Of a DNA stretch of 64,000 nt, positions 1,243 to 58,020 are shown piece after piece (position 1 is the stretch's first letter; every line of letters begins with the position of its first letter). Where the stretch lies: NCBI GenBank assembly GCA_965197465.1, contig OZ240209.1:3965174-4029173 (forward strand), in the 5' to 3' direction. Under the pieces are notes generated by a model. It worked only from the letters and a program-made list of their open reading frames with translations. It did not search any database and was not told the DNA's origin. This stretch comes from Candidatus Poribacteria bacterium. GTDB lineage: Bacteria; Poribacteria; WGA-4E; JAJDTR01. Position numbers and translations under genes: made by a program.

Positions 1243-1998
1243 ATGGCAAACACAATTCGGCTTTATGAACATGGTGTGCGCGTGTTCGCGGGACGACTGT
1301 ACAACCACGATTACCTTTGGTTCTCATCCAACGAAATCAGCAAGGTTTCGATAACCCAACCCGTCCTGCACAATTACGCACTCTGTTATGCAATCTCGCA
1401 GCGCTCCTACGGGGCTTATCTCGGTTCAACGCCAAAGTATGTTGAAGATCCGGATGGTGAATTCAATGCGATGCCGCTCTACGCAACGCCGGCGCACGCG
1501 GACCATCCCGAGCACATATCGCGCACGACCATCACTTTCAATGCCGTTGATTCACGTACACTGACAACGGGTGATAGCAAAACAATGAATACCCCGAATT
1601 TGGGTAAACGAGTCTACATTGATCCTGTGTGGGAACCAATGGCGATAGAACGTCCGGAAAAAGGCTATCAATTCTACGTTTTCACATTCGACAGCTATCG
1701 CCCACTAGGGGTAACACGGCTTGGTAAGAAAGGGGCTTCAATGCGCATTCGGTGGGAAGAAGTACCTCAACCTATTGCGTTCTTCCGTGAAGGCGAACAA
1801 AGCCCAACACACCCAATTAACCCTTTGGATATCAACGGACATCTCGTCAGCTACGATCCCGTGATGATTCCGCCACATCTATTGTTTCGGACAGCAACGC
1901 TTACCGAAGATTGGTGGCTATTCTTTAGTGCCGGCAGAGCCCGGCATACCATACACCTCCCCAAACGTGTTTTGAACCGAATTGGAGGGGTATCATGA
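1243..1998 (+). CDS. cas5: Cas5-family subunit (Csc1/Cas5-like)
   Basis: 251 aa, directly after cas7, with GAGGTGA RBS at 1231-1237. Its stop overlaps the cas3' start (ATGA at 1995-1998). Size and position match Cas5. Sequence is only weakly diagnostic by eye. Confidence 0.5.
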   Translation: MANTIRLYEHGVRVFAGRLYNHDYLWFSSNEISKVSITQPVLHNYALCYAISQRSYGAYLGSTPKYVEDPDGEFNAMPLYATPAHADHPEHISRTTITFNAVDSRTLTTGDSKTMNTPNLGKRVYIDPVWEPMAIERPEKGYQFYVFTFDSYRPLGVTRLGKKGASMRIRWEEVPQPIAFFREGEQSPTHPINPLDINGHLVSYDPVMIPPHLLFRTATLTEDWWLFFSAGRARHTIHLPKRVLNRIGGVS

Positions 1999-4019
1999 GA
2001 ATCCAGGGCTACTCTTATGAACAAGTCACTGTAGAAGATGTGCAAACCCATCTTTATCCACATCAAGCCGCCATGTACAACGAATGGTCCAATCACACCG
2101 GATTCCTACTCGTGACCAAAACAGGGAGTGGCAAAACACGGGCGACAGCGTTACCCGTACTGAAAAACCATGAATCTGCTGTTTTTGTCTACCCCACAAA
2201 CGCGCTGATTCAAAATCAATCACGGGCTATTCAGCAATTGATGGATGACGAGGGAATAACATATCGGGCGCGGACGCCGGAAACAGCAAACGAAAGGGTG
2301 GGAACTGAAGAATATGAAATCGTTCAAATTAGCTCCCTGACGCTCGCAGCATTTGCAAAGGCGTGGAGAATGGGTGAAAAGCAAAAAGGGGACGCATTGA
2401 TAAAACTAATTGGTCAAGAGAAACGTAAAATTGTATTGATTAACCCCGATATTCTTTATCTTCTGTACTCTTTGCGCTACCGTGGCAGTCCAGAAGTTTT
2501 GTCACATTTTCAAGCATATAAGACCATTGTATTTGACGAATTTCATCTCTACAACGGAGTTGAACTAGCCCACGCGCTTTTCCTCATTTTTTGGGCACAA
2601 CGTATGGGTGCATTCCAACGGGTTGTGTTGCTCTCTGCCACTCCGAATGAAGAGGTCAAAACCTATCTAGATCGACTGCTCAGCCCACTTGTCATTGATG
2701 CTGATGTAACAGTCCCACAACCTATCTGTGGCGAGCGCACGGTCGCCCATGATGTAGAACTCAATGCCTTGCCGGTTGCTCGGGATGTCGTCGAAACAGC
2801 ACAATCAAAGGTCCTTGAACTTCAGAGCAAACTATACCAACTCCAAGCAGAAAACCAAGAAGCAAGCAACACAGAAGATTATGTGCCTTGTGTCGTTATC
2901 CTCAATTCGGTCGTCAACGCCATCGCGCTGGAAGACGCTCTCGTTGAGGCGGGGATACCACGTACAGAAATCGCACCAATTCGCGGGCTTTCAGCACGGA
3001 GTAGTCGAGACGTGAGAGGCAGGATGCTTGTCATCGGTACCGCGGCAATCGAAGTTGGAATCGACTTCAAAACTGACTATCTGATTTTTGAGGCGGGCAA
3101 CCACGCATCGTTCATACAGCGATTTGGACGGCTTGGAAGACATAGCATCGGACAGGCGTTCCTACTCGCTACTCCGCGTGAATGTGAAGCGGTAAAATCA
3201 CTTGGAAATGATATTTCCCGGGACGCTCTAGAGGAGGGTGTCAAAACCATCTATCCCGGACAGGATGCGAAGGGATGGTTTGTTGATACGCTTTGCGGGG
3301 CGTTTACGATACTCGCCCAAGCCGAGAACTTTCGCAGTAGGATTATCGACGATTGGTCTGCTGATGAAACGGTGAAAACTGAAATTGAAACATGGCTAGA
3401 TGCTGCTCTGACAGACTATGCAACAAAGATGCGTCTAACTCAGATGAAACGTGCTCGCTTGAAACTTCGACGTAATCCCACGTGGTTTGAACATTACAAA
3501 GCATTGGACTCATTTCGGACATCGTTACCAAGCATTGAAGTTTGGGATGCACGCGAAAAATTTGAACGCGGGCGAGAACCGTACTACACCGTAGATTTGA
3601 AAACACTTTTAACACGTACGACGGTTCACTGGTCCGAAAAGTATCAGCGAATGGAAGTGAAAAAAGGCTACGATAAATGGCATCAGGTTAATCTGCTAAA
3701 GTCGTTTGATGATGAACATGAGGATGAATGTTGTGGCATGTTTCGGACAACTGCTGATTATCCGAACGGAGAGATGCAATTCATGCAAGAAGGTCATTTG
3801 ACATCGGTCTCACATGTGATGGCAAAACAGAAGTACAAAGAACGTGTTACCGGCCATCTGTTTGTTCTCGCACCGGAAGATTTACGCTACTACTTGGACT
3901 GGCGACTAGCGTGGTTTAGATGCGGATCGCGTGGGAAATTCATCATTGCATTTGATGGGGACGCGCTTTTACTGAAAGCAATCTACGATCGAACAGTGAA
4001 AATGAGAGACGGTACGTAA
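1995..4019 (+). CDS. cas3: Cas3' superfamily-2 helicase, helicase-only with no HD nuclease domain
   Basis: Walker A TKTGSGKTRA sits near the N-terminus, so there is no room for an N-terminal HD. DExH box is VFDEFH. Motif VI is QRFGRLGR. 674 aa. Confidence 0.85.
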   Translation: MRIQGYSYEQVTVEDVQTHLYPHQAAMYNEWSNHTGFLLVTKTGSGKTRATALPVLKNHESAVFVYPTNALIQNQSRAIQQLMDDEGITYRARTPETANERVGTEEYEIVQISSLTLAAFAKAWRMGEKQKGDALIKLIGQEKRKIVLINPDILYLLYSLRYRGSPEVLSHFQAYKTIVFDEFHLYNGVELAHALFLIFWAQRMGAFQRVVLLSATPNEEVKTYLDRLLSPLVIDADVTVPQPICGERTVAHDVELNALPVARDVVETAQSKVLELQSKLYQLQAENQEASNTEDYVPCVVILNSVVNAIALEDALVEAGIPRTEIAPIRGLSARSSRDVRGRMLVIGTAAIEVGIDFKTDYLIFEAGNHASFIQRFGRLGRHSIGQAFLLATPRECEAVKSLGNDISRDALEEGVKTIYPGQDAKGWFVDTLCGAFTILAQAENFRSRIIDDWSADETVKTEIETWLDAALTDYATKMRLTQMKRARLKLRRNPTWFEHYKALDSFRTSLPSIEVWDAREKFERGREPYYTVDLKTLLTRTTVHWSEKYQRMEVKKGYDKWHQVNLLKSFDDEHEDECCGMFRTTADYPNGEMQFMQEGHLTSVSHVMAKQKYKERVTGHLFVLAPEDLRYYLDWRLAWFRCGSRGKFIIAFDGDALLLKAIYDRTVKMRDGT

Positions 4020-5773: not shown

Positions 5774-6025
5774 ATGCACACATACGTGATTTACGACATC
5801 GTCGAAGACCGAATCCGCAAGAAGATCGCCGATGTCTGCCTCGACTACGGCTTGAAGCGCATCCAATACAGCGCCTACTTGGGGGATATCAACACCACGC
5901 GGCGGCGGGCGTTGGATGCAAAACTAACGCAGGAATTTGGCGAAGCGGAGGGAAAGATTGAAGTCCTCTCCGTGTGTGCGAAAGATTTCGACCAACGCAC
6001 CATTATCGGGGATGCTGAAAGATGA
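5774..6025 (+). CDS. cas2: Cas2
   Basis: 83 aa. MHTYVIYDIVEDRIRKKIADVCLDYGLKRIQYSAYL matches the Cas2 N-terminal beta1-alpha1 pattern. Its stop overlaps the cas4 ATG (ATGA). Confidence 0.75.
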   Translation: MHTYVIYDIVEDRIRKKIADVCLDYGLKRIQYSAYLGDINTTRRRALDAKLTQEFGEAEGKIEVLSVCAKDFDQRTIIGDAER

Positions 6026-6594
6026 ATATACGGGTCAGCGACATCAAACAGTACTTCTACTGTCCGCGGGTGGTCTACCACACCTACTTCACGCCGGTGC
6101 ACCGTCCGACGACGCACCCGATGCAGCTCGGCGCTGTTGAACACGAAGTGTTAAGTGTCCTTGAACGCCGTCGAACCCTTGCCCGCTACGGACTTGAGGC
6201 TGGCAGTCGCAAGTTCCATGTCTCACTCCACGCCCCGGATCTCGGATTAACTGGCGTGCTCGACCTGCTTATTGAAACCGAAACTGGCGCGTTTCCCGTC
6301 GAGTTCAAGAGCACGAGACAACGGCTGGACCTGAACGCAAAGTGCCAGTTGACAGCATACGCGATGATGGTGGAGGAGTGCCTGGGTGTCGCCGTGACTC
6401 AAGGGTTTATCTACCGGATTCCCACGGAACGAATCACGCCGGTAACGATTTCAGAGTCGCTCCGCGAGAAAACGCGGAACGCTCTCCGGGACATCCGACG
6501 AATGTTGTCGGACGAGTGGATGCCTCCGCCGACTCCGCAGCGCGGGAAATGCGTCGAATGCGAATTTCGGCGATTCTGCGCGGATGTGTTGTGA
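6022..6594 (+). CDS. cas4: Cas4 RecB-like nuclease with a 4-Cys Fe-S cluster
   Basis: N-terminal YCPRVVYH Cys plus C-terminal C-x2-C-x5-C (CVECEFRRFC). Nuclease motif LDLLIETETGAFPVEFKST (D-x-E-x-K). It is adjacent to the array leader. Confidence 0.85.
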   Translation: MNIRVSDIKQYFYCPRVVYHTYFTPVHRPTTHPMQLGAVEHEVLSVLERRRTLARYGLEAGSRKFHVSLHAPDLGLTGVLDLLIETETGAFPVEFKSTRQRLDLNAKCQLTAYAMMVEECLGVAVTQGFIYRIPTERITPVTISESLREKTRNALRDIRRMLSDEWMPPPTPQRGKCVECEFRRFCADVL

Positions 6595-7011: not shown

Positions 7012-10000
7012 GTAGCAGTGAGTGCCGCGATGAAAAGCGGACTGAAAGCGCTCCACTGTCTCACCCCTCCGAAACCTCAACCAGTAGCAGTGAGTGCCGC
7101 GATGAAAAGCGGACTGAAAGCCTATGTACCCACCGCCACATAACGTAGTCCTCGCGTAGCAGTGAGTGCCGCGATGAAAAGCGGACTGAAAGCCGTCTCT
7201 CGGTTCATTAAATCTTCGGCATGGGTCAGTAGCAGTGAGTGCCGCGATGAAAAGCGGACTGAAAGTCACTAACAAGTCTTCGTTGAAACAACCGTTGAGA
7301 GTAGCAGTGAGTGCCGCGATGAAAAGCGGACTGAAAGAACTCACCGAAACACGGGACATCTATGTTGAAGTTGTAGCAGTGAGTGCCGCGATGAAAAGCG
7401 GACTGAAAGAGATGTCACGTCTGGTATGGACGTGGGAATGATATAGTAGCAGTGAGTGCCGCGATGAAAAGCGGACTGAAAGCGGACGCATTTCGTGCAT
7501 TCGTACAACAACGTCATGTAGCAGTGAGTGCCGCGATGAAAAGCGGACTGAAAGACGCCCACCGACCTCGCCGTTGAGATTAGCCAGAAAGTAGCAGTGA
7601 GTGCCGCGATGAAAAGCGGACTGAAAGTTAACCAGAACCGCCTAGGCGACGCCCGCGCAGAGTAGCAGTGAGTGCCGCGATGAAAAGCGGACTGAAAGTC
7701 CGAGCAACGACACACCGGACACTCAAATCCTATTGTAGCAGTGAGTGCCGCGATGAAAAGCGGACTGAAAGAGAAAACGATAATCATTACAACATCGCCG
7801 TTTTTAGTAGCAGTGAGTGCCGCGATGAAAAGCGGACTGAAAGAGTTTTCAAAAGCAATTAACTCCACATCCAGCGGCCTAGTAGCAGTGAGTGCCGCGA
7901 TGAAAAGCGGACTGAAAGTCTGACCGAACCGCAGCGCAACCTGTTTCGGACTGTAGCAGTGAGTGCCGCGATGAAAAGCGGACTGAAAGTGGCGCATGTT
8001 GAAAGCCGGCTACCGAACACGATTACGTAGCAGTGAGTGCCGCGATGAAAAGCGGACTGAAAGGTTGGCGTCCATACCGCCCATAATAGCCCCAATCTAA
8101 GTAGCAGTGAGTGCCGCGATGAAAAGCGGACTGAAAGCGCCCAGCGCTTCGGCGTCCACACCGGTTTGCAGTAGTAGCAGTGAGTGCCGCGATGAAAAGC
8201 GGACTGAAAGTCCGTGCCCCCGGCTGACCATGACACACCGGCGGCGTAGCAGTGAGTGCCGCGATGAAAAGCGGACTGAAAGGAGGATAAATCGAAACTG
8301 GAGGATAAGGCATATAAAGTAGCAGTGAGTGCCGCGATGAAAAGCGGACTGAAAGGCGCGCGCCGCCAAAACAGTGCCGCTGCGTTAATGTAGCAGTGAG
8401 TGCCGCGATGAAAAGCGGACTGAAAGGCTATACCAACTGATCCGCAGTTGGTTGAATCAGGGTAGCAGTGAGTGCCGCGATGAAAAGCGGACTGAAAGCG
8501 TCTACATGGATATCGGCAAGGATTACACGGGTTGTAGCAGTGAGTGCCGCGATGAAAAGCGGACTGAAAGCTAGGCTGTTGAACCCGTTCTTTTCCTCTC
8601 CACCGTAGCAGTGAGTGCCGCGATGAAAAGCGGACTGAAAGATCAACCAATCGACACTGACCGCCATCTACAGCGCGGGTAGCAGTGAGTGCCGCGATGA
8701 AAAGCGGACTGAAAGATTTCCGCGCGAGACGCCTTCATCTCTTTCAGCACTGTAGCAGTGAGTGCCGCGATGAAAAGCGGACTGAAAGCTTCTATGCTTG
8801 TCGTATAACCGTTTCCGTAGCTATGGTAGCAGTGAGTGCCGCGATGAAAAGCGGACTGAAAGCCCTCCGGGTCGTCCGGGTCGGCAATGCCGCCGTAGTA
8901 GCAGTGAGTGCCGCGATGAAAAGCGGACTGAAAGACTCGCCAGTGTGTTCATGCGGCAATCCAAGGCATGGTAGCAGTGAGTGCCGCGATGAAAAGCGGA
9001 CTGAAAGCCGTCTATAGATTAGCGAGCAGCTCCTCGAGGAAACGACCGGTAGCAGTGAGTGCCGCGATGAAAAGCGGACTGAAAGTTCTACAACACGAGT
9101 CCTGACACTTCGCTGATTTGCGTAGCAGTGAGTGCCGCGATGAAAAGCGGACTGAAAGACCCCGTCGGGGGGATTCACCGAGACGCGTTACGCGGAGTAG
9201 CAGTGAGTGCCGCGATGAAAAGCGGACTGAAAGGCGGTCACGCGCATTCAGATATGTTCTCACTTCGGTGTAGCAGTGAGTGCCGCGATGAAAAGCGGAC
9301 TGAAAGGCGTGTTGAATCCACTGTCAATCCCGATGCCGGAGTAGCAGTGAGTGCCGCGATGAAAAGCGGACTGAAAGATGCAGCTTGGGCATGTGCAGAC
9401 CCAGGAGTTCAGGTAGCAGTGAGTGCCGCGATGAAAAGCGGACTGAAAGACGAATACAGTATACAGGAGAGGGGCTTCAAGCACGTGTAGCAGTGAGTGC
9501 CGCGATGAAAAGCGGACTGAAAGCCGAGCTAGTTACAGTTGCCGATCAGATGAGTGCCATGTAGCAGTGAGTGCCGCGATGAAAAGCGGACTGAAAGCCT
9601 AAATGTCACACCCTCAGAAGTTTGTCTTGGTAGGTAGCAGTGAGTGCCGCGATGAAAAGCGGACTGAAAGTCCATCATCGTAGCCTTTAACCGATACTAC
9701 CCCGCTGTAGCAGTGAGTGCCGCGATGAAAAGCGGACTGAAAGTAATTCCTGTATGTCTTGATTCATTCTATCTCCCTAGTAGCAGTGAGTGCCGCGATG
9801 AAAAGCGGACTGAAAGTGCTACGAATATCATGTGCTATTCCTTTGGCATTTAGTAGCAGTGAGTGCCGCGATGAAAAGCGGACTGAAAGTAAAGTATATG
9901 TGAACATACCGCCTACATACATTGTAGCAGTGAGTGCCGCGATGAAAAGCGGACTGAAAGGTCGAAGTGCGCTGGGGAGTCATCGCCAAGTTTACCGTAG

Positions 10001-10844
10001 CAGTGAGTGCCGCGATGAAAAGCGGACTGAAAGGTAGGCAAAGTACCTGTGGTAACAGTGTAAGCCGAAGTAGCAGTGAGTGCCGCGATGAAAAGCGGAC
10101 TGAAAGCACGCCCATTCCTTGCTTGAAGCGCACTTGTCTTGGGTAGCAGTGAGTGCCGCGATGAAAAGCGGACTGAAAGAGTTATGACGCCGCTTGAAAC
10201 GGACACTGGCATGGTGTAGCAGTGAGTGCCGCGATGAAAAGCGGACTGAAAGTTTGTTACAAACTTACTAGACGATTTATGATGGTCTATGTAGCAGTGA
10301 GTGCCGCGATGAAAAGCGGACTGAAAGACAATCGCACGAAGTAACACGGCTTTAGTTTGTCGTAGCAGTGAGTGCCGCGATGAAAAGCGGACTGAAAGGT
10401 TTTCTTGTAATGAGAATTGGGGTAGATTTCAGAGTAGCAGTGAGTGCCGCGATGAAAAGCGGACTGAAAGATGTGGCACGAGTTTATATTCATGCAGACC
10501 GGACGGATGGTAGCAGTGAGTGCCGCGATGAAAAGCGGACTGAAAGATGTGGCACGAGTTTATATTCATGCAGACCGGACGGATGGTAGCAGTGAGTGCC
10601 GCGATGAAAAGCGGACTGAAAGTCTATGTACAAAATCTGGGCACGAGTGCATAACCAGTAGCAGTGAGTGCCGCGATGAAAAGCGGACTGAAAGATGTGG
10701 CACGAGTTTATATTCATGCAGACCGGACGGATGGTAGCAGTGAGTGCCGCGATGAAAAGCGGACTGAAAGGATAAGCGGCAAAACGGTGAACATCAATGA
10801 GGGCAGGGTAGCAACCATTGCCCCGATGAAAAGGATCAAGGGAG
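7012..10844 (+). CRISPR. CRISPR array of 52 identical 37-nt repeats plus one degenerate terminal repeat at 10808-10844. Spacers are 34-41 nt.
   Basis: All repeat starts were enumerated by hand, from the first at 7012 to the last at 10734. The repeat contains a CCGC/GCGG stem with GATGAAAA loop and an ACTGAAAG 3' handle, like Cas6-processed I-D/III-type repeats. Spacers at 10471-10509, 10547-10585 and 10695-10733 are identical. Confidence 0.97.
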
Positions 10845-11215: not shown

Positions 11216-14020
11216 ATGCGAACAATACGAATACTACTCACCATATTCCTTCTTGCCCCCCTCCCCGTCTTCGCCGCTATCACAGTCGTCGACGACCAGT
11301 TGCACGTCGACACGGCAGCCTACACCGTTCTATTCGACCGCGGCACCATCACTCAACTCCATAACAAGCGCACCGGCGAAACCCACACTCTCGCCCCCGG
11401 CGCCAACCCGAATCCGGGGTTTAGTAAGCAGACTGCCATCGTAGGCCGGGGTAATATCAAAGATTGGTCGCCCCGTTGGGATGCCGACATACAGATAAAC
11501 AAAATTACTGACCACCACGCTGACATTGTATTTCGAAAGGGCGGGAACGCGATAACACTGTCAATCGGCATCGACCCCGCCAACAACGACCTGCTTATCG
11601 GAGGACAGGCTGTATCCGCGATACCCGGCGTTATTGGTATCCAATGGTCTGTCGAAAACCTTGATCTCCATAACCTTAGCCTCATCATCCCATCTCAAGG
11701 GATACAACAAATCGACGCCTCCTCCGCTATCGAACACCGCAACTTTCCATATCCCGACACATTCCGCTGGGAAGCGCAGCTTGCTATTATAGAATCCCAA
11801 CTCGGCGGGTTCTACGTCCGAGGCACCGATACAACCTTCCGATTCAAAGAACTAAATTATCAGCGCGACGATACCAGTTTCGGGCTCGTGTTCAAAACCA
11901 TAAATCAAGCGCCGTGGGATAGCCTCACATCAGCCAAGTCCGTCACCTGGCGCCTCAATACCTACGTTGGAGAGTGGTGCGTTCCCGCTCAAATACACCG
12001 CGACTGGATGGAACAGGCGTTTAACCCCTGGCGTCTTAGCGACGTACCGGCGTGGGTCAGTGATATCGGCTTGGTCGTTTTCCTCACGAAACTGGATACG
12101 GAACAGCTGAACGCGGTGGAAGCCTTGGCACAGCACGTTGAACCGACGCAAACGCTTTTCTATCTGACAGATTGGCGCAAATACGAGAACGATATCATGC
12201 ACCCGGATTTTACCGCCATTCACCATAATTTTGAAACGTTTCTCGAGGTCGCTCGGCGGTACGGATACCGGATTATGCTGCACGTTAACCTTCATAACTG
12301 CTCGCCGACCCATCCGCTCTATGCGGAATTCAAGCAATACCAAATACGACATCCCAACGGCGAACTGTCCGGCTGGAGATGGGACGATATTGATCATCCG
12401 GACCGGAATGCGCACATCAGTCTCGGCAGTTCGCGTTGGCGCAACCTGCTTATCCGACAATTCAAGGCGCTAAGGGACAAATACGCCATAGACGCCTTTC
12501 ATCTTGATGTGAGCCACTACATCGTCAACGACGGCAACGGTTTGGTCGAAGGTCTTACCAGCGCCGAAGCGAGCGTGCTGATGCACCGGCAGTTGATGGA
12601 AGCCATGCCGGGCGTGGTGCTTGCCGGTGAACACCTCCACGAAGTCACGTTTTTCCGCGAAAGTATCGCACAACGCAATTTATCGGAGCATGCCACACAC
12701 CCGCTCAGCGCCTTCCTCTTTGCCCCGTACACCCGGTTTATGGGGCATCTTGGATTTCCGCGTGAACACAATCCCCAGCGCCTCCGATACGCGATCCAAT
12801 TTTACGAACGTCAAGGTACTCTACCGACCGCGCGAATATCGAACGAAAGCCTATTACACCAACCGATCACCCGGGACATACTCGCTGTTGCACGCCAGTG
12901 GCAAGCGTTGAAGTTGACGCCTGATATCCACTGCCATTGGTGCGAAAATACCCTATTCCAATATACCACGGACAACGGCGAGAGTGTGACCTACCAAAAG
13001 GTCGACGGCGTATATTCACTCAATATACCCGACGGTAACGGATACCGGCGAGTGCATGGCGTCACCCAAGCCGCTACCCGGTGGAGCCTCCCCGAATGGC
13101 GCGCGTACAATGAAGAGATGCTTCTCGGTCTGGATCCGAACAAATACTATTCGCTCCGCAATGCGCCGCGCGATGTCTCCCAATTACACATTAACGCGCT
13201 TTCCCCGGGTGTTTACGTGGCAGAGACCCGCGTAACACCGCAAGCCGCCGTCTTTCGACTCGAGTCGACCTCCGGGGTTAGAGACACCTCTGTAGATATG
13301 TTCCTTCCAATGCCGCCGCTTGCAAGTGTTCCAAAGACACTTGTCTCCGTAGCCGGCAATCACTACCGTATCGACACAAATCTATCCCGACCTATCGTAA
13401 TCATACTCGCCGCGCCGCGCATTCGCCTGCCCTATAATTTAAGAGACTATCCGTTTATCGCCGGATTGCAACAGAGCGGTATCTTCCGAGTCGGAAGCCA
13501 CCACGGATCCGGCGAACGTATGACAGCGACCCTTGATGGTATCCATAAAGAGACCATCTTTGCCCACCCGCCTAAAACTGACAAAACAATTCTCCAATTC
13601 GTGTTTACGCTGCCCGAATCGCCGTCAACCCTTTCATACTCGATGGGGTTAGCCGGAGAACACAGCAAGGGCGTTCTGTTTGAAATCCGCCTTAACGGCC
13701 AGACGCACGTTAACTTCTTGAAGGATACCTTCGACTGGACGGACGGCAGTATCTCGCTTGACGAATTTGCGGGCGAACCCGTACTATTGGAATTTGTGAC
13801 AGACCCTGGGGACAGCTCGGACTACGATTGGGCGCATTGGGGGGATTTGATCATTACCGCTGACACGAATCCAGCCGATGTAAACGGGGACGGCATTGTC
13901 AACATCCTCGATTTGACGCTTGTGGCTCAAGCGTTCGGAATGAGTAGTGCGGCGGCTGACGTGAACGGTGACGGCGTCGTGAACGTTTTCGATTTGGTTT
14001 TTGTGGCGAACGCTTTTTAG
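11216..14020 (+). CDS. Secreted 934-aa putative glycoside-hydrolase-like protein with a C-terminal type-I dockerin
   Basis: Signal peptide ILLTIFLLAPLPVFAA. The C-terminus has two dockerin repeats DVNGDGIVNILDLTLVAQAFG / DVNGDGVVNVFDLVFVANAF. AAGGAGA RBS. Confidence 0.7.
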   Translation: MRTIRILLTIFLLAPLPVFAAITVVDDQLHVDTAAYTVLFDRGTITQLHNKRTGETHTLAPGANPNPGFSKQTAIVGRGNIKDWSPRWDADIQINKITDHHADIVFRKGGNAITLSIGIDPANNDLLIGGQAVSAIPGVIGIQWSVENLDLHNLSLIIPSQGIQQIDASSAIEHRNFPYPDTFRWEAQLAIIESQLGGFYVRGTDTTFRFKELNYQRDDTSFGLVFKTINQAPWDSLTSAKSVTWRLNTYVGEWCVPAQIHRDWMEQAFNPWRLSDVPAWVSDIGLVVFLTKLDTEQLNAVEALAQHVEPTQTLFYLTDWRKYENDIMHPDFTAIHHNFETFLEVARRYGYRIMLHVNLHNCSPTHPLYAEFKQYQIRHPNGELSGWRWDDIDHPDRNAHISLGSSRWRNLLIRQFKALRDKYAIDAFHLDVSHYIVNDGNGLVEGLTSAEASVLMHRQLMEAMPGVVLAGEHLHEVTFFRESIAQRNLSEHATHPLSAFLFAPYTRFMGHLGFPREHNPQRLRYAIQFYERQGTLPTARISNESLLHQPITRDILAVARQWQALKLTPDIHCHWCENTLFQYTTDNGESVTYQKVDGVYSLNIPDGNGYRRVHGVTQAATRWSLPEWRAYNEEMLLGLDPNKYYSLRNAPRDVSQLHINALSPGVYVAETRVTPQAAVFRLESTSGVRDTSVDMFLPMPPLASVPKTLVSVAGNHYRIDTNLSRPIVIILAAPRIRLPYNLRDYPFIAGLQQSGIFRVGSHHGSGERMTATLDGIHKETIFAHPPKTDKTILQFVFTLPESPSTLSYSMGLAGEHSKGVLFEIRLNGQTHVNFLKDTFDWTDGSISLDEFAGEPVLLEFVTDPGDSSDYDWAHWGDLIITADTNPADVNGDGIVNILDLTLVAQAFGMSSAAADVNGDGVVNVFDLVFVANAF

Positions 14021-14825: not shown

Positions 14826-15114
14826 ATTAAGTAACTGTTTAGTTCAATTTATGAAGGTGCTAAAAGGGCGTCCCATCAGGACAATTGCACATAATTCTAA
14901 AGATGTAGAGATTTTCTCTGCGATTACCAGATTACCAATTTTCCCTCTTCTCTTTGCACGATTATCAAAAGCCCCAGCGGGGCGGCAGGTGTATAGAAAC
15001 GTGAATTCACTACACAGCAAAGCCCCAGAGGGGCGACAGGTGCATATAACTTCACATGACCGAAAGTGCCTTTCCCTCCTATTATTCAAACAGGCTCTAA
15101 ACAGTTACGAAATT
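14826..15114. mobile_element. 289-bp MITE-like element bounded by 18-bp imperfect terminal inverted repeats AATTAAGTAACTGTTTAG / CTAAACAGTTACGAAATT
   Basis: 16 of 18 bases match between the TIRs. The interior holds two copies, 51 bp apart, of AAAGCCCCAG(C/A)GGGGCG(G/A)CAGGTG(T/C)ATA, each a GCCCC-loop-GGGGC hairpin. No clear target-site duplication. Confidence 0.3.
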
Positions 15115-24180: not shown

Positions 24181-26244
24181 TCAAAATGCATTGGCTACGA
24201 ACACAAGGTCAAACACATTGACAACCCCATCCCCATTCATGTCCGCCTCCAAACTATCCGTCCCAAACCCCTGCGCCACCAGCGTCAAATCCAAAATATT
24301 CACCACTCCATCGCCGTTGACATCGGCGGGATTCTTCGGCTTTACCCGCAGATACATCTCCCCGTCGAGGTTCGGTAGCGCGTGCTCCGTGTCCACCGAG
24401 CCACTGGCTACGCCCTGCACCTCCTCCGGCAGCGTTATTACCTGTGCCTCTCCACTGTGATTGTACACCGCCCACCCATTCGTAAACTCGCGGATATAGA
24501 GACCGGGGATGTCTTCGTCGTAGAGCTGGGCTTTGGGACCAACGGAGCGGCCGAGGTTGGCGTCCCAGAAGTCGTACCAGTAGTGACCATGGTATTGCTC
24601 CGCCCGAAAAAGTACGTAGCCGTCGGAATGTGTTAGGCTGAGAGCTGTGGCGGCGCGCATCCAGCGCAGGCTTGATGGGCTGTCAGGGGTCTCCGAAGGT
24701 TGAATATGCGCTTGAAGTCCGTTTATTCTGGGTTCGCGCAGATTGTTTTCGAGCCAAAGCAGAGCCTTTTCAACTCTGTTGACTGTCTCTTCAAGTTCGT
24801 CGCCTGTTCGGTCAAAAGGCATACCGGTTTCCATAAACCCGCCGTTGACGTAGGCTCCTGTTCGCGGGAGTATCCGCTCATTGGTATTGCCCATTATTAG
24901 AAAGTCGGGGCGTGTGGAGGCACGGATGCGGCGAATAATGTTGAGACGTGCGGCTTGCTCGGCTTCATTCCCGCGAAACTTATGCGACCAGTCGCCATCA
25001 AAATCTGCCAAAATAGCGTCATCATCAGTTCACCAATCGAAAAAAATACCGTCATATAACCCGCACTTCGCAACGGCTATAGCTTCCTCGACGATGATGT
25101 CTTGAACGTCAGGGTGGGTAAAATCCCATAATTAGGTGCTTCCTTGAGAAACCGGTTGGCCGTTCGCGTCCTTTACCCAATAGTGAGAATCGTCGGGAAA
25201 CTCGCCTTGTGTGCGGGTCCGCAACGCCAGTTGCAAAAGAAAAACCATATTGGGATTTATGGCGATGAAATCGTCGCGTGTTTGCACTCCGCGGTCGAGC
25301 TCACCTTGAACAGACCATCCTTTAGCAGTGGGTACGAGGTGAACATGGAATAGTGACGGCCTCCCAACATGTAAATCGTGTTGCGCCAACTGTTCCAGAT
25401 CGGACAGATGCGGCTGGTTAAGAACCGTGCTGTGGCCGATGCTGCCCCAGGCCGTAAAAACCGAGGGGAAGGTTCTGTTTTCCAGGTGAGGCCGAAGCGG
25501 GAGCGGCGGAAGGTCGCATTGCTGATCATAGATAAAATGATCAAGGGATATTCCATCAAGTGGAGAATGGTCAGCGATTCGGTTGCCGTGGAGTTCCAAA
25601 CGCTCAAGCGAAGTGAGTTCCGAAAGAGGGCTGACGTCAGTAATCAAATTGTTAGTCAGAAGTAATTCAGTTAGCCGTGAAAGCCCGGCAAGTCGGCTGA
25701 TGTCGACGATTACATTGAATCGCAGATCGAGTGAGGTAAGTTTGGTTAGTGAGGCAAGCGGTGTGATGTCGTCGATGTCGCACGCGCCGAGGTATAGGAG
25801 TTCTAGTCCGGTTAGATTGGATAAAGGCATCAGGTCTGATATTGGATTCGACCACAACTCGAGAAGCTTCAACTTCGCCAGTCCAGCGATAGGTCGGAGG
25901 TCGGTGATTCCATTATTGGCAAGTCGGAGTTTTCGTAGATTCACGGCGTATTCAATGCCAGTGAGTTCTTGTATCTAGCGGTTTGAAGCGACGATGGCGG
26001 TTAGATCCTGCATGGCGTCCTGTGTAACCGGAACGGCGCCGGGTAGAGCCAGAGTTTCGCGAATTGCAGCGTGGAGGTTCAGGTCGGGTATCTCGACGAC
26101 TTGTGCGAATGCGACGCTGCACTGAACAATATAAAGCAAAAAACTGAGTGCAATTGTCCGTCTGAATTTCACCAATCTTTCCCTCAAATCATGAATGGTC
26201 TCCCGACCCAACAAAACAGAACAACCGCTCCATATACTAGGCAC
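24181..26244 (-). pseudogene. Signal peptide-LRR-glycoside-hydrolase-like-dockerin gene with three in-frame stops. Its C-terminal two-thirds is paralogous to the 11216-14020 product.
   Basis: ORFs 25975..26244, 25132..25944 and 24181..25011 are all in one frame. Across the stops the translation reads ...AIVASNR-TAG-IQELTGIEYAVNLRKLRLANNGITDL... (LRR continuity), then ...QGST-TAA-LWDFTHPDVQDIIVEEAIAVAKCGLYDGIFFDW-TGA-TDDDAILADFDGDW... LAQH and W.D..HPD motifs are shared with the 934-aa protein. It ends in dockerin repeats. Confidence 0.55.
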
Positions 26245-26295
26245 AAAACTCTCGTATCAGAAGTTGTTCAGGGCAGCCTTCAAATCCGCCCGTTT

Positions 26296-26889
26296 TCAGG
26301 CAAGCGCATTCCGGCAGGAGTAGTCGAGAAGGAGTTTTATCTCCTCGACTTGCACCGTTTGAAGGAACTCAACGACCTCGCCATCGGCATGCCCGGCGGC
26401 ATCTTGGCACCAATCGATAAATTGGGGCGCATCCCAGTTGTTGTTTTGCTCGATTACCTCCATGTGACGAGCAAGTTGCGTCGATTGGCGTGGCTCAGCC
26501 TTGAGGGAATCGAGAACGCGCACCCGCAGCATAGGGAAGATCGGATGGCTTCCCACTCGCGCAAACCAGTATTTCGAATTGCTATAGTCCGGTTCGCGCC
26601 GGTGCATAATACCGTGCCAATAACTTCCTGTTTTGGAGCCAATACTCTGAGAGATGTTGTGAGAGTCGTCCAACGCATCATTCCAGAGCAGCAGTCCGGA
26701 TTTTACGGCATTTGCCAGAGATGAATCTTTGAGTGCCCGACCGTCAAAGAGATCCGTTGCCGAGGTTGCTCGAATCTGATTCGTCAACTCGGAATCCCAC
26801 TCCTTCTCCGGCGCAAGTGGTGGTAATGGGTGACGCGCATCAAGTTTCTGAACGATTTCGTCGATTTGGGGCGGGTATTCTATGCTCAT
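26296..26889 (-). CDS. Hypothetical protein
   Basis: 197-aa ORF of ordinary composition. No motif recognised. Confidence 0.45.
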   Translation of the reverse strand: MSIEYPPQIDEIVQKLDARHPLPPLAPEKEWDSELTNQIRATSATDLFDGRALKDSSLANAVKSGLLLWNDALDDSHNISQSIGSKTGSYWHGIMHRREPDYSNSKYWFARVGSHPIFPMLRVRVLDSLKAEPRQSTQLARHMEVIEQNNNWDAPQFIDWCQDAAGHADGEVVEFLQTVQVEEIKLLLDYSCRNALA

Positions 26890-27029: not shown

Positions 27030-27100
27030 ACGATCAACTGAGTGAATAGCGAAGGCGATAGTATATCTCGTGCGATAGAAGATCCTACCCGTTATCCACT
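27030..27100. repeat. GATCAA/GCGATAG mosaic element (GATCAACTGAGTGAATAGCGAAGGCGATAGTATATCTCGTGCGATAGAAGATCC)
   Basis: Same module set as 17790-17885 and 21835-21900. Confidence 0.55.
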
Positions 27101-27113
27101 CGCTTGATTGCGC

Positions 27114-27833
27114 CTACCGGCAGGCATCCGTATCAAGGCGCAATCGACCTAGCTTATCAACAGGGGCTTGGATAAGGCATGGACTTTTTACAGGCTTCAA
27201 CCATCGAATCAGCGATATGAGGTCGTTCTTCGCCATTGCCGTACATCCGGCTGTTGGTTCACCTCTCGCTTTCCACACGTGGAGGAAAATCGCGCTGCCC
27301 TTGCCTTTTATGACTGGTGCGGCGTTGTGTTGGACGACTGCTCCCAACTCATAAAGATGATCGGGGCGTTTCATCTCTTCCCATGAATTCCATATTCGCT
27401 GTGGCGTCCTCGTGTTCCCGTCGAGCGTCACCCATTGATTGTAATCCTCTGATTCCACGTCGTCGACATAATAATCATTATCTGTGATACGTCGATATGG
27501 AAGTGATGTGCCTGCTGGCGGCTTTGAATCATAGCCAAACGCAGTCCCAAGTCGAAACACCCCCGCCGGTGCCTTAAAATCCCCTTCTGCTTTTTGGGGT
27601 GGAGCACTAATTGTGTTGTGAATTCCGTTTCCCCATCCTAGTCCGCTTTTGCCTAGCATTACGGAGACATCCCTTCCATCCAAGCACCATCGGTCATGTA
27701 TTTTCGAGAATAGATGCAGTCTACCCGTATCACTCGTCCACGACGTTGCTGTAACTAGCACGACTTGTTGAATAGGCAAAGAGCCGGCTACAATCGAGGA
27801 AACCGCATCTTTGTATGAGTTAAGGTGTGCCAA
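27114..27833 (-). CDS. L,D-transpeptidase (YkuD)-like protein
   Basis: C-terminal SAIFLHVW...TAGCTAM resembles the YkuD His...(S/T)xGC catalytic motif. Confidence 0.45.
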   Translation of the reverse strand: MAHLNSYKDAVSSIVAGSLPIQQVVLVTATSWTSDTGRLHLFSKIHDRWCLDGRDVSVMLGKSGLGWGNGIHNTISAPPQKAEGDFKAPAGVFRLGTAFGYDSKPPAGTSLPYRRITDNDYYVDDVESEDYNQWVTLDGNTRTPQRIWNSWEEMKRPDHLYELGAVVQHNAAPVIKGKGSAIFLHVWKARGEPTAGCTAMAKNDLISLIRWLKPVKSPCLIQAPVDKLGRLRLDTDACR

Positions 27834-32815: not shown

Positions 32816-33497
32816 CTGGACGAAGCCTCAAGAAAAGAATAATGAAAGAGCGCGGTGCGTTTAGGGTAGGCTATTAGGGATGATGTATATTGTTTAGTTT
32901 AGTTCGTAGGTTGGGTTTCGCTACATCTGTGTGCACGAGCGAGTCATGGGAAAACTGAATTCTTTTCGGAAACTTGATAGAACTTGGTTGTTGAAGGGAT
33001 TTCTATCGCACTCGCTATCGCACTCGCTATCCAATCGCTTGATCTCAGCGATTTCTGCTTTCGCGGAATGCCGCCACCATCCTCCGAACACGCCGTATCA
33101 GAATTGTAACAAGTACAACGAGCACGACAAATTGCAATACCCGAAGCAGGCTAAGTACCCCGCTGGGCATGTCAACCTCTCTTGATTGCGCCAACCAGAT
33201 TGGAAGAAGCGCGACAGCCGACACGAGCAGTATCCAATTTTCCCAACGATCCCACGTTTTCATGAGAGCAAACCCTCCAAATCAATCTCTATAGTCATTG
33301 CAATTAAGAATTACACATGTGTTTATAACATACCCAATTTCCCACCCATTCCCGTAGGTCGGGCTTCCAGCCCGACCCGCTCAATGGGAAACGTCGTAAA
33401 CCGGGAGATTGTGAGCTAAGTCGAGTCAATCAACGCTCATATGGGTAAATATAAATGCACATGACTATAACTGCTAACGCTTAAACTCGCCATCGGA

Positions 33498-39245: not shown

Positions 39246-41267
39246 TTAACCATCTGAGCTTGGCTTATCAAATTCTTCTTTGAGCAAAGCACCTAATGTT
39301 GCTGGTTCTTCATCCCTACTGTCAGACTGTTTCTCTTGATATTGGACCGTTGTTGCCCGTTCTTGTTCAGCTAGCGCAGCTTTCAAACTTAGACCAATCC
39401 GACGCTCGTTTACATCTAGATGAATTACTTTTAGGTCCAATTGATCGCCAATGGAGACAATTTCCTCTGGCTTTTCAATTCTTCGCTCAGCTAGTTCCGA
39501 TATATGTATAAGACCTTCAACGGCATCTTCTAACTTGGCAAATGCACCGAAGCTCGTTAAGTTCATGATCTCGCCGCTCACCACGGCGCCAATCTTATAT
39601 TTTTCCGGGACTTGCAACCAAGGGTCTGGTTCGACTTGTTTCAATCCAAGTGATACGCGTTGGTCGGCGGGATCAATCTGTAACACCACCACTTCAACCT
39701 CGCCGCCTTCCTTCAAAATCTCGCGAGGGTGAACATCACGCTTGACCCAAGAGAGATCCGAGATATGGATTAGTCCGTCAATTCCCTCTTCAATTTCGAC
39801 AAAAGCGCCAAAATCTGTGAGATTGCGTACGCGCCCAGAAATTTTCGTACCAATTGGATATTTGTGTTCGAGTTGTTCCCACGGATTTGGATCTAACTGC
39901 TTAAGACCAAGAGAGACTCTTTTCGAAGATTTAGTAATATCAAGAACAAGTGCCTCGATCACATCACCTTTTGTGACAAACTTGGAAGGTGCAACATTTC
40001 GCCGCGTCCATGCCATTTCCGAGACGTGAATAAGCCCTTCAACGCCCTCTTCCAGCTCTAAGAATGCGCCGTAATTGACAATGTTGACCACGGTTCCACT
40101 GACGGTGGAACCTACGGGATATCGATCCTCAATACCATCCCAAGGATTTGGCGTCTTCTGTTTTAACCCTAATGACACTTTCTCCTTTTCGACATCAATA
40201 CCAATGATGAGGATTTCAATCTCGTCACCGATAGAAACGATCTCAGAGGGTTGATTTACCTTCTTCCACGACATATCGGTTTTATGGAGAAGACCATCAA
40301 TACCACCCAAATCAACAAAGGCGCCGAAAGAAGTGATATTCTTGACAACTCCAACACGGGTTTGTCCAACTTCAAGACCGCCAAGGAGTTCAGTTTTGCG
40401 TGCCGTGAGTTCGTCCTCTAGTAACGCCCGCCGGGACAACACAATGTTATGGCGCCGCTTGTTAAGTTTGACTACCTTTAGTTCGAGTGTCATCCCAACG
40501 TATTTATCAAGATTTGGAATTGGGCGTAACTCTATCTGTGACGCTGGGAGGAATGCCCGTAAAGATCCGATATCAACTCGAAGCCCGCCTTTGATTCTCT
40601 CTACGACCTTGCCCTCAACCGTCTGTCCTTGTTCACATGCTGTGGCGATTACATCCCAAATACGAGTCTGGTCTGCAAGCCTCTTTGAAAGCACAAGTTG
40701 CCCATCAGAATCTTCCCTACGGACAATATAAACATCAATCTCATCGCCCACCTGCACTCCGGGTAGCCCTTCCTCAGTCGCCTCAAACTCGGAAGACGGA
40801 ATGTATCCCTCAGATTTGAACCCAATGTCAATCATGACCTCCTCACGACTGACTTCGACAACGGCGCCTTTTACGATCTGGCCCTCGGCGAACGCTTTGA
40901 TAGAATTGTCGTACGCTTTTTCGAGGGACTCGTTGCTTAATAGCGATGTGCCGGTATCAGAGTTTTCTTTGTCCGCAGATGGTGTATCAGAAAGCGGCGG
41001 CTGAGAATCTTCTGGAATCTCGCTAGGCGCGGCCACCTCCGAGGAAATGGAAGAATTTCCCCCCGAATTTTCAGAACTGGCGGTATCTTCTGCGCAATCT
41101 ATTGAAATTTCGTTCTCAACGGCGTTCTGCAGGTTCTCGCTAATGCCCTCTCCTCGGTCACTTAGAGACTCTTCCGGTTGGCTTTCCGTGGTATCGGTTT
41201 CTGCTTCCATCGCAGTATTAGCTTGATCTATAGCTGCCCTTTCATTGTGTGAATCCTCGTTCATCAA
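39246..41267 (-). CDS. rpsA: 30S ribosomal protein S1 with an acidic N-terminal extension
   Basis: Six S1 repeats (GxV motif blocks such as KGAVVEV, EGKVVERIKGG, GTVVNIVNYGAF) preceded by a ~130-aa E/S/D-rich tail. Confidence 0.9.
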   Translation of the reverse strand: MMNEDSHNERAAIDQANTAMEAETDTTESQPEESLSDRGEGISENLQNAVENEISIDCAEDTASSENSGGNSSISSEVAAPSEIPEDSQPPLSDTPSADKENSDTGTSLLSNESLEKAYDNSIKAFAEGQIVKGAVVEVSREEVMIDIGFKSEGYIPSSEFEATEEGLPGVQVGDEIDVYIVRREDSDGQLVLSKRLADQTRIWDVIATACEQGQTVEGKVVERIKGGLRVDIGSLRAFLPASQIELRPIPNLDKYVGMTLELKVVKLNKRRHNIVLSRRALLEDELTARKTELLGGLEVGQTRVGVVKNITSFGAFVDLGGIDGLLHKTDMSWKKVNQPSEIVSIGDEIEILIIGIDVEKEKVSLGLKQKTPNPWDGIEDRYPVGSTVSGTVVNIVNYGAFLELEEGVEGLIHVSEMAWTRRNVAPSKFVTKGDVIEALVLDITKSSKRVSLGLKQLDPNPWEQLEHKYPIGTKISGRVRNLTDFGAFVEIEEGIDGLIHISDLSWVKRDVHPREILKEGGEVEVVVLQIDPADQRVSLGLKQVEPDPWLQVPEKYKIGAVVSGEIMNLTSFGAFAKLEDAVEGLIHISELAERRIEKPEEIVSIGDQLDLKVIHLDVNERRIGLSLKAALAEQERATTVQYQEKQSDSRDEEPATLGALLKEEFDKPSSDG

Positions 41268-57479: not shown

Positions 57480-58020
57480 CGTAGGTTGGGTTGAACGGGA
57501 CTAACCAACAAAACCGGAATGACACATAGCGGTAGGAGCGATCAAGCGAACGATCAACTGAGATCAACCGAACGGACAGTGAAGGAGCAAACGAGTGGAC
57601 AATGAGTGCGATAGTAGATCCTGATAGAGATATTTCAGTGAATGCGATAGAGATCCCTCTCCGAATCGCGACTCGTACGTGCGCTACATCAGGAATCGGA
57701 ATTCCCTCCTACAGCCGTAGACCGTTTCTCCTGCCTCTTTCTACTGGCAAAAGAAGACCTGAACGTATCTATAGGCGAACACTCTTTGACTCTGTTGGGT
57801 TGAACGACATTAACCAATATAACCCGGCATTACGCGCGGCTTAAAGAGTTTAATTCCGCTTGAACTCTAACACATCTAGTGAAACCCAACTGGATAATCA
57901 ACACGCGGGTTGGATTGAGGTGTTGGGTTTCGTTCAATTCCGGTTCAAGTCCGCCCCATTGAAAAACAGAACTTGATTGTGCTATAGCGATTCGCATTTT
58001 ACCACTCAACCCAACCTACG
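57480..58020. mobile_element. 541-bp non-coding element bounded by perfect 15-16-bp inverted repeats CGTAGGTTGGGTTGA(A) / (T)TCAACCCAACCTACG. MITE-like. Contains GATC-rich mosaic modules and nested hairpins.
   Basis: TIRs at 57480-57495 and 58005-58020. The interior 57529-57672 is a GATCAA/GCGATAG element. 57889-57940 holds the nested inverted repeats GAAACCCAAC...GTTGGGTTTC. Confidence 0.35.

Follow-up and report, generated by a model that had tools for sequence, protein, structure and literature searches.

Three derived nonsense mutations in a probable LRR-GHL15-dockerin pseudogene of Candidatus Poribacteria

The minus-strand segment 24181-26172 of the 64,000-nucleotide stretch of DNA analysed here (the window) is, very probably, a genuine and recently inactivated pseudogene of Candidatus Poribacteria, a sponge symbiont. 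Its three internal stops are real, derived and polymorphic nonsense mutations, and the three open reading frames at 24181-26244 call for a single pseudogene annotation in place of three genes. Homology to intact relatives continues across each of the disruptions, and the disruptions are derived with respect to outgroups.

Reading frame and domain organisation

The minus strand, read in a single frame from 26244 to 24181, contains exactly three internal stops, TAG at 25975-25977, TAA at 25132-25134 and TGA at 25030-25032, where the first-pass annotation had placed them, ahead of the native stop of the gene (TGA at 24181-24183, minus strand). The start had been put at 26244. Alignment points instead to GTG 26172 as the true start, since relatives have their ATG at the aligned position and a GAGGGA motif lies before it, and the 24 codons upstream of it are only a mechanical extension of the open reading frame. 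A promoter and terminator scan around the gene gave nothing above chance. The features of the locus are as follows.

24181-26172, minus strand: whole pseudogene, formerly a gene of 663 codons for a secreted LRR-GHL15-dockerin protein (from the frame, Pfam and alignment to intact relatives of 646-685 aa)
26104-26172, minus strand: signal-peptide-like N-terminus, VKFRRTIALSFLLYIVQCSVAFA followed by Q, judged by eye; relatives share a MNFRQKI...AFAQ leader
25975-25977, minus strand: nonsense codon 1, TAG from CAG (Gln), in 9 of 9 strain sequences
25944-25946, minus strand: internal GTG, start of the downstream fragment according to gene callers (270 aa here, 588 aa in strain L004)
25516-25995, minus strand: internalin-like LRR region, interrupted by the TAG (Pfam LRR_4 and LRR_8)
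24472-25212, minus strand: GHL15 (hypothetical glycoside hydrolase family 15; Pfam PF14885), in three pieces by the TAA and the TGA
25146-25147, minus strand: in-frame 3-nt deletion (AAA, Lys) relative to L004 and to the outgroup locus L002
25132-25134, minus strand: nonsense codon 2, TAA from TAT (Tyr), in 6 of 9 strain sequences and younger than the other two
25027-25032, minus strand: nonsense codon 3 and an adjacent change, TGA ACT from TGG AAC (Trp-Asn), in 8 of 9 strain sequences
24187-24327, minus strand: type I dockerin module (Pfam PF00404)

The TAG cuts off the signal peptide and the first 65 codons from the remainder, and the conserved core of GHL15 is cut once by the TAA and once by the TGA, so that an orphan piece of 33 codons is left. 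The contexts of the stops (TAG-A, TAA-T and TGA-A) are ordinary, and no Shine-Dalgarno-like run lies upstream of the internal GTG at 25944-25946.

Translation through the stops bore out the continuity of domains that had been proposed from the sequence: the matches to LRR_4 (3.2e-22) and LRR_8 (3.3e-11) both span the TAG, and the match to GHL15 (3.4e-12; 47.3 bits against a cut-off of 27; residues 345-591) spans both the TAA and the TGA. LRR_4 was the top Pfam match (78.5 bits against a cut-off of 27), and tandem 22-residue LRR units are present. The LRR region of an intact relative, P0001, had Listeria internalin A as its best solved match in a sequence search (1.5e-83), and the GHL15 part matched no solved structure by sequence. 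At the C-terminus, Dockerin_1 was matched at 5.5e-10 (39.7 bits against a cut-off of 22.9), with the duplicated Ca-binding segment DxNxDGxxNxxD present as DVNGDGVVNILD ... DMNGDGVVNVFD. The N-terminus, with its apparent cleavage point after VKFRRTIALSFLLYIVQCSVAFA, looks like a putative Sec signal peptide.

In a protein search more than 1300 relatives were matched at E <= 1e-10; almost all are full-length, at about 650-1100 aa, and composed of LRR, GHL15 and dockerin, and precomputed annotation likewise assigns GHL15 (PF14885) to most of them. The relatives that bear an organism name are few and all come from Candidatus Poribacteria, and a genome-contig scan with one genome per species gave 186 stretches related to the family, of which all but a few belong to poribacterial MAGs; single chromosomes there hold more than 12 copies, often in tandem. 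Full-length relatives align unbroken across all three stops (88% identity to the 664-aa P0001), and the Trp at the TGA site is nearly invariant across the LRR-GHL15-dockerin family in the alignment. Pfam and the relatives therefore agree with the first-pass annotation that a single gene for an LRR, hydrolase-like and dockerin protein has been broken by in-frame stops.

Some features of the wider family were observed alongside. Family copies often lie in tandem arrays with N-terminal fragments, and others besides the present one are broken: a DDE_Tnp_1 IS element interrupts a tandem copy at L002 (12038-15867), and frameshifted copies occur at L056 (about 3445), L086 (about 4715) and L077 (7664-7682). 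The C-terminal stretch of about 110 residues (GLYIREFTNGWAVYNHSG...NLDGEMYLRV...dockerin; window 24181-24520, alignment columns about 615-725) hardly varies between paralogues and species whose identity elsewhere is only about 60%. At the nucleotide level the same stretch is about 81% identical, which looks like strong constraint at the level of the protein, with some gene conversion.

Distribution of the stops among strain contigs

Strain contigs were found through the neighbouring 197-aa protein (26296-26889), which is present with identical sequence on 11 contigs, of which eight (L004-L011) were examined; selection by an identical neighbour protein biases this sample towards close relatives. 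In their naming the contigs resemble those written by HiFi long-read metagenome assemblers. The eight contigs belong to the ENA assemblies ERZ25072076, ERZ25069191 and ERZ25072670, have coverages of 5x-44x and lengths of up to 6.5 Mb, and are all syntenic with the window at a nucleotide identity of at least 98.4% (98.4% over 15 kb for L001/L004). The disruptions are distributed among them as follows.

TAG: the window and all eight contigs
TGA with ACT and the deleted AAA: all but L004
TAA: the window, L005, L006, L007, L008 and L011, with TAT in L004, L009 and L010
Extra 2-nt insertion near 25732 (+2 frameshift): L011 only

These states form a nested, stepwise series, from TAG to TAG with TGA, to TAG with TGA and TAA, and then to the added frameshift. 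L005 is the same as the window across 26072-24110 save for two sites, and one assembly yields four strain contigs with three different states, which excludes sequencing or consensus error as the source of the stops.

Comparison with intact relatives

The polarity of the changes was read from a comparison with intact relatives. In a DNA alignment, the closest intact relative, P0001 (locus L002), has CAG, TAT and TGG at the three stop sites, and the translation of a longer copy, L013 (OZ244829.1), carries Gln, Tyr and Trp where the stops align. All three stops are thus derived, each by a single-step nonsense mutation. Among the strains, L004 retains both TAT and TGG. The codon beside the TGA has changed as well, from AAC to ACT (TGGTGGAAC>TGGTGAACT), and the conversion of TGG TGG AAC into TGG TGA ACT is compatible with three substitutions as well as with a complex -1/+1 event.

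An intact allele at more than 90% identity was absent from a database of 5.8 billion proteins, in which the sole match of that kind was a truncated protein of 588 aa, P0002; the exact sequence of the window's 270-aa fragment did not occur in the gene-position index. A metagenome scan with the 197-aa neighbour protein gave further relatives of that protein at no more than 63% identity, and neither an LRR-GHL15 gene nor the other neighbours lay nearby at the 23 best loci of that scan. The closest intact relatives in the genome-contig scan, L012 and L013 (86-88%), are not syntenic either, so that an intact syntenic version in another species was not found among these loci. The lack of a syntenic counterpart in more distant relatives indicates that the copy at this locus is lineage-specific.

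Substitution pattern

The first-pass annotation had regarded decay by nonsense mutation alone as unusual. Of random single-base changes to this gene, about 3.2% would produce a stop, and the window lineage carries 2 stops against 10 missense changes, for which about 0.46 stops would be expected if all of the missense changes had followed inactivation; a Poisson estimate from these counts gave P of about 0.08. An excess of nonsense over missense was therefore rejected, the effect being marginal and not significant, and a single nonsense mutation in a set of about 12 recent substitutions is unremarkable. Elsewhere in the window no other interrupted gene was found, a scan for long segments in the same frame giving only adjacent separate genes, and there is thus no general excess of nonsense mutations. 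Indels are present in the gene too, in the form of the deleted AAA, the possible -1/+1 event at the TGA and the +2 insertion in L011. The related claim that 2 kb had passed without an indel stood in so far as the frame is kept, but the window allele itself has the 3-nt in-frame Lys deletion near 25146, and its TGA site is readable as a -1/+1 change.

Differences between the window and L004 are concentrated in 25512-24599, where they reach about 7%, the background being about 1.5%. When these changes were polarised with L002, 32 synonymous changes, 10 non-synonymous changes and 2 stops fell on the window lineage, and 19 synonymous changes, 7 non-synonymous changes and no stops on the L004 lineage. 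The resulting dN/dS of about 0.15 on both lineages indicates that this block diverged while it was still under purifying selection. Were the TAG older than the split of the haplotypes, purifying selection would have had to continue after the TAG arose; a 560-bp segment that holds the TAG shows almost no variation across the nine sequences, and recombination may have carried the TAG into both core haplotypes. The old and mostly synonymous divergence would be explained if recombination had joined segments that diverged while functional, although the order of events is not proven.

The more recent changes have a different composition. Outside the dockerin, polymorphisms among the TGA-bearing alleles comprise 7 non-synonymous (the TAA/TAT site included) and 3 synonymous sites, a total of only 10, and correspond to a dN/dS of about 0.9 (neutral expectation 0.69:0.28); on these 10 sites the recent polymorphisms look near-neutral. 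Within the dockerin, 13 synonymous and 3 non-synonymous polymorphisms occur in haplotype blocks, which look like the product of gene conversion from functional paralogues.

Mosaic structure of the locus

The window sequence combines segments that are found apart in other strains, and one junction lies at the 5' end of the gene.

26072-26389: recombination block that takes in the 5' end of the gene and the intergenic region upstream of it, of L004 haplotype in an otherwise L005-type background

Within this block the window differs from L005-L011 at 131 positions, including a 68-nt indel, against 0-2 differences per 250 bp elsewhere. With two very different haplotypes at 26072-26389 and a window that mixes the two types, the locus is a recombination mosaic, and the combination in one sequence of blocks from different strains is a sign of frequent homologous recombination. 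A second short block of divergent haplotypes among near-identical strains was seen at 27088-27400 (about 70 differences).

Alternative explanations

The first-pass annotation had raised errors in the sequence or in the consensus of collapsed paralogues as one alternative. An assembly artefact of this kind, whether through sequencing errors or through a chimeric consensus of collapsed paralogues or strains, would be helped by the many similar paralogues in each genome and by the mosaic of two haplotypes in the window, which a strain-collapsing assembler could in principle produce. The mosaic junction, however, lies upstream of all three stops, and the mosaic cannot therefore have created them. 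The TAG recurs in eight other independently assembled contigs, the TGA in seven and the TAA in five, from three assemblies at 5x-44x; L005 repeats the gene body of the window almost base for base, and the states of the stops are nested and not random, so that an artefact is extremely improbable. The same nested polymorphism bears on regulated readthrough, the other alternative that had been raised, in which a full-length protein would be made by suppression of the TAG, TAA and TGA. Preservation of the frame over 2 kb and the mostly synonymous older divergence are what such recoding would predict, but the stops vary among near-identical strains, one of which has an added frameshift, three different stops would require three mechanisms, and none of the three stop contexts is in any way special. 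The residues at the homologous positions are Gln, Tyr and Trp, and not Sec/Cys or Pyl/Lys; recoding as selenocysteine or pyrrolysine was rejected because the TGA corresponds to Trp and the TAG to Gln in homologues, and no SECIS or other Rfam match and no tRNA gene, and hence no candidate suppressor tRNA or recoding RNA, was found within the 64-kb window. The near-neutral appearance of the recent changes (10 sites) also speaks against a maintained product, and all three stops end housekeeping genes here. Readthrough is thus scarcely credible. Reassignment of a stop codon was excluded on the same ground, as the earlier annotation had concluded: the 30 long open reading frames of the window end in TGA (11), TAG (10) and TAA (9), among them the conserved genes for DnaE (TAG), ribosomal protein S1 (TAA) and AdoHcyase (TGA). 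There is accordingly no remaining suggestion of recoding or of an alternative genetic code in this genome.

A different possibility is that the gene has undergone fission into a leaderless LRR protein of 270 aa and a 276-aa protein of GHL15 fragment and dockerin, or that it yields a 588-aa product in L004. Gene callers do predict these open reading frames in several strains, and the 588-codon frame of L004 is intact. Against this, the conserved core of GHL15 would be cut twice with a 33-codon orphan left over, the fragments are without a signal peptide, on which a surface protein with LRRs or a dockerin depends, the internal GTG is without a Shine-Dalgarno-like sequence, and the ratio of recent non-synonymous to synonymous changes is approximately neutral (10 sites). 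The same split occurs in no distant genome, and the 120 best of the more than 1300 relatives are all full-length at 646 aa or more, with the exception of P0002; fission is therefore very unlikely. Equally at issue is whether the loss was itself favoured. Repeated hits on an internalin-like surface gene, with the TAG in nine of nine sequences of a biased sample, could reflect selection for loss of a protein exposed to host or phage, that is, adaptive inactivation in the sponge; or else the TAG-only allele of L004 could make a useful leaderless product of 588 aa. In that allele the 588 codons after the TAG are still open, and a leaderless product from the internal GTG is possible; were it made, it would explain the mostly synonymous older divergence downstream of the TAG. 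We consider this pair of readings improbable, and prefer simple inactivation of a probably redundant gene.

Proposed course of inactivation

On the preferred reading, that of a recently inactivated pseudogene, the ancestral gene, one among many paralogues in the genome, encoded a probable signal peptide, an internalin-like LRR region, a putative GHL15 glycoside hydrolase domain and, at the C-terminus, a conserved module that closes with a type I dockerin. The change of CAG to TAG gave rise to the stop now carried by every sampled strain of this species-level population. On one core haplotype TGG became TGA, together with the change of AAC to ACT and the 3-nt deletion; the change of TAT to TAA came later, on a subset of the TGA haplotype, and one strain added a +2 frameshift. 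Homologous recombination between strains assembled the mosaic seen in the window, with an L004-type 5' end and an L005-type body, and the bulk of the divergence between haplotypes is old and synonymous. The gene is presumably not expressed as a functional protein, and its loss was probably tolerated through redundancy and through birth-and-death evolution of the expanded family.

On a small scale the locus illustrates cleanly how a pseudogene decays step by step, and how strains recombine, in an uncultured sponge symbiont; it has little weight beyond its annotation, and is in keeping with a large poribacterial LRR-GHL15-dockerin family that turns over by birth and death.

Other features of the window

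The first-pass annotation had taken the C-terminal two-thirds of the interrupted gene to be a paralogue of the 934-aa protein at 11216-14020 (plus strand). This protein is intact and secreted, with DUF6259 (and not GHL15) and a C-terminal dockerin, and in BLASTP only the last 50 aa of the pseudogene, the dockerin, match it (86% identity). Paralogy was therefore rejected; the 934-aa protein represents a second type of dockerin-bearing protein in the neighbourhood. The 673-aa open reading frame at 39246-41267 was likewise rejected as a paralogue, being ribosomal protein S1.

A CRISPR array lies at 7012-10770 (plus strand), with 52 identical 37-nt repeats (GTAGCAGTGAGTGCCGCGATGAAAAGCGGACTGAAAG) at a period of about 72-73. 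Duplication seems to have affected the final few spacers (10434-10770; period 76, 82% match), and a DEAD/Cas3-like helicase gene and a Cas4-like 190-aa open reading frame lie upstream of it (1995-4019 and 6022-6594). In the sister strain L001, an IS of about 1.35 kb (1196-2328; HTH_32 and DDE_3 transposase) is inserted between the AdoHcyase and PfkB genes; the window is without it, the junction lying at about 33416-33421. Two intergenic stretches of the window of about 70 nt each (14967-15041 and 57562-57631) match, at about 82%, positions 430-503 and 2777-2846 of L012, which flank a family member in another poribacterial genome, and may represent a small dispersed repeat.

Comparison with known systems

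Kamke et al. (2014, PMC3909097) reported a very high abundance of two-copy LRR domains (pfam12799) in the genomes of Poribacteria, often with signal peptides. The gene described here resembles the eukaryote-like LRR proteins of that study, in that LRR_4 (PF12799) is its top match and its relatives come from poribacterial MAGs; it is unlike them in that the present copy is dead. The text of PMC3909097 makes no mention of dockerin or cohesin, so that the combination of LRR, GHL15 and dockerin was apparently not described there, and the papers retrieved contained no account of such a domain combination, nor any of pseudogenes in Poribacteria. Through its LRR region, which by sequence matches internalin A (E = 1.5e-83), the intact relative recalls the Listeria internalins (InlA/InlB), but the internalin inter-repeat and anchor regions are absent here, with GHL15 and a dockerin in their place, and host-cell binding by the LRR protein is suggested by analogy only. 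The C-terminal type I dockerin on a putative hydrolase is likewise shared with the dockerin-bearing glycoside hydrolases of cellulosomes, in contrast to which the catalytic family here is the uncharacterised GHL15 and the host is a sponge symbiont and not a cellulolytic anaerobe.

With an ordinary bacterial nonsense pseudogene in an expanded family, the locus shares derived stops, secondary hits and other broken copies, with recent changes that look near-neutral on 10 sites, and it differs in nothing essential. The sole uncommon aspect is that co-assembled strains preserve intermediate states of the decay. The locus is thus an ordinary pseudogene of a known kind, within an expanded, fast-turnover family of eukaryote-like LRR surface proteins.
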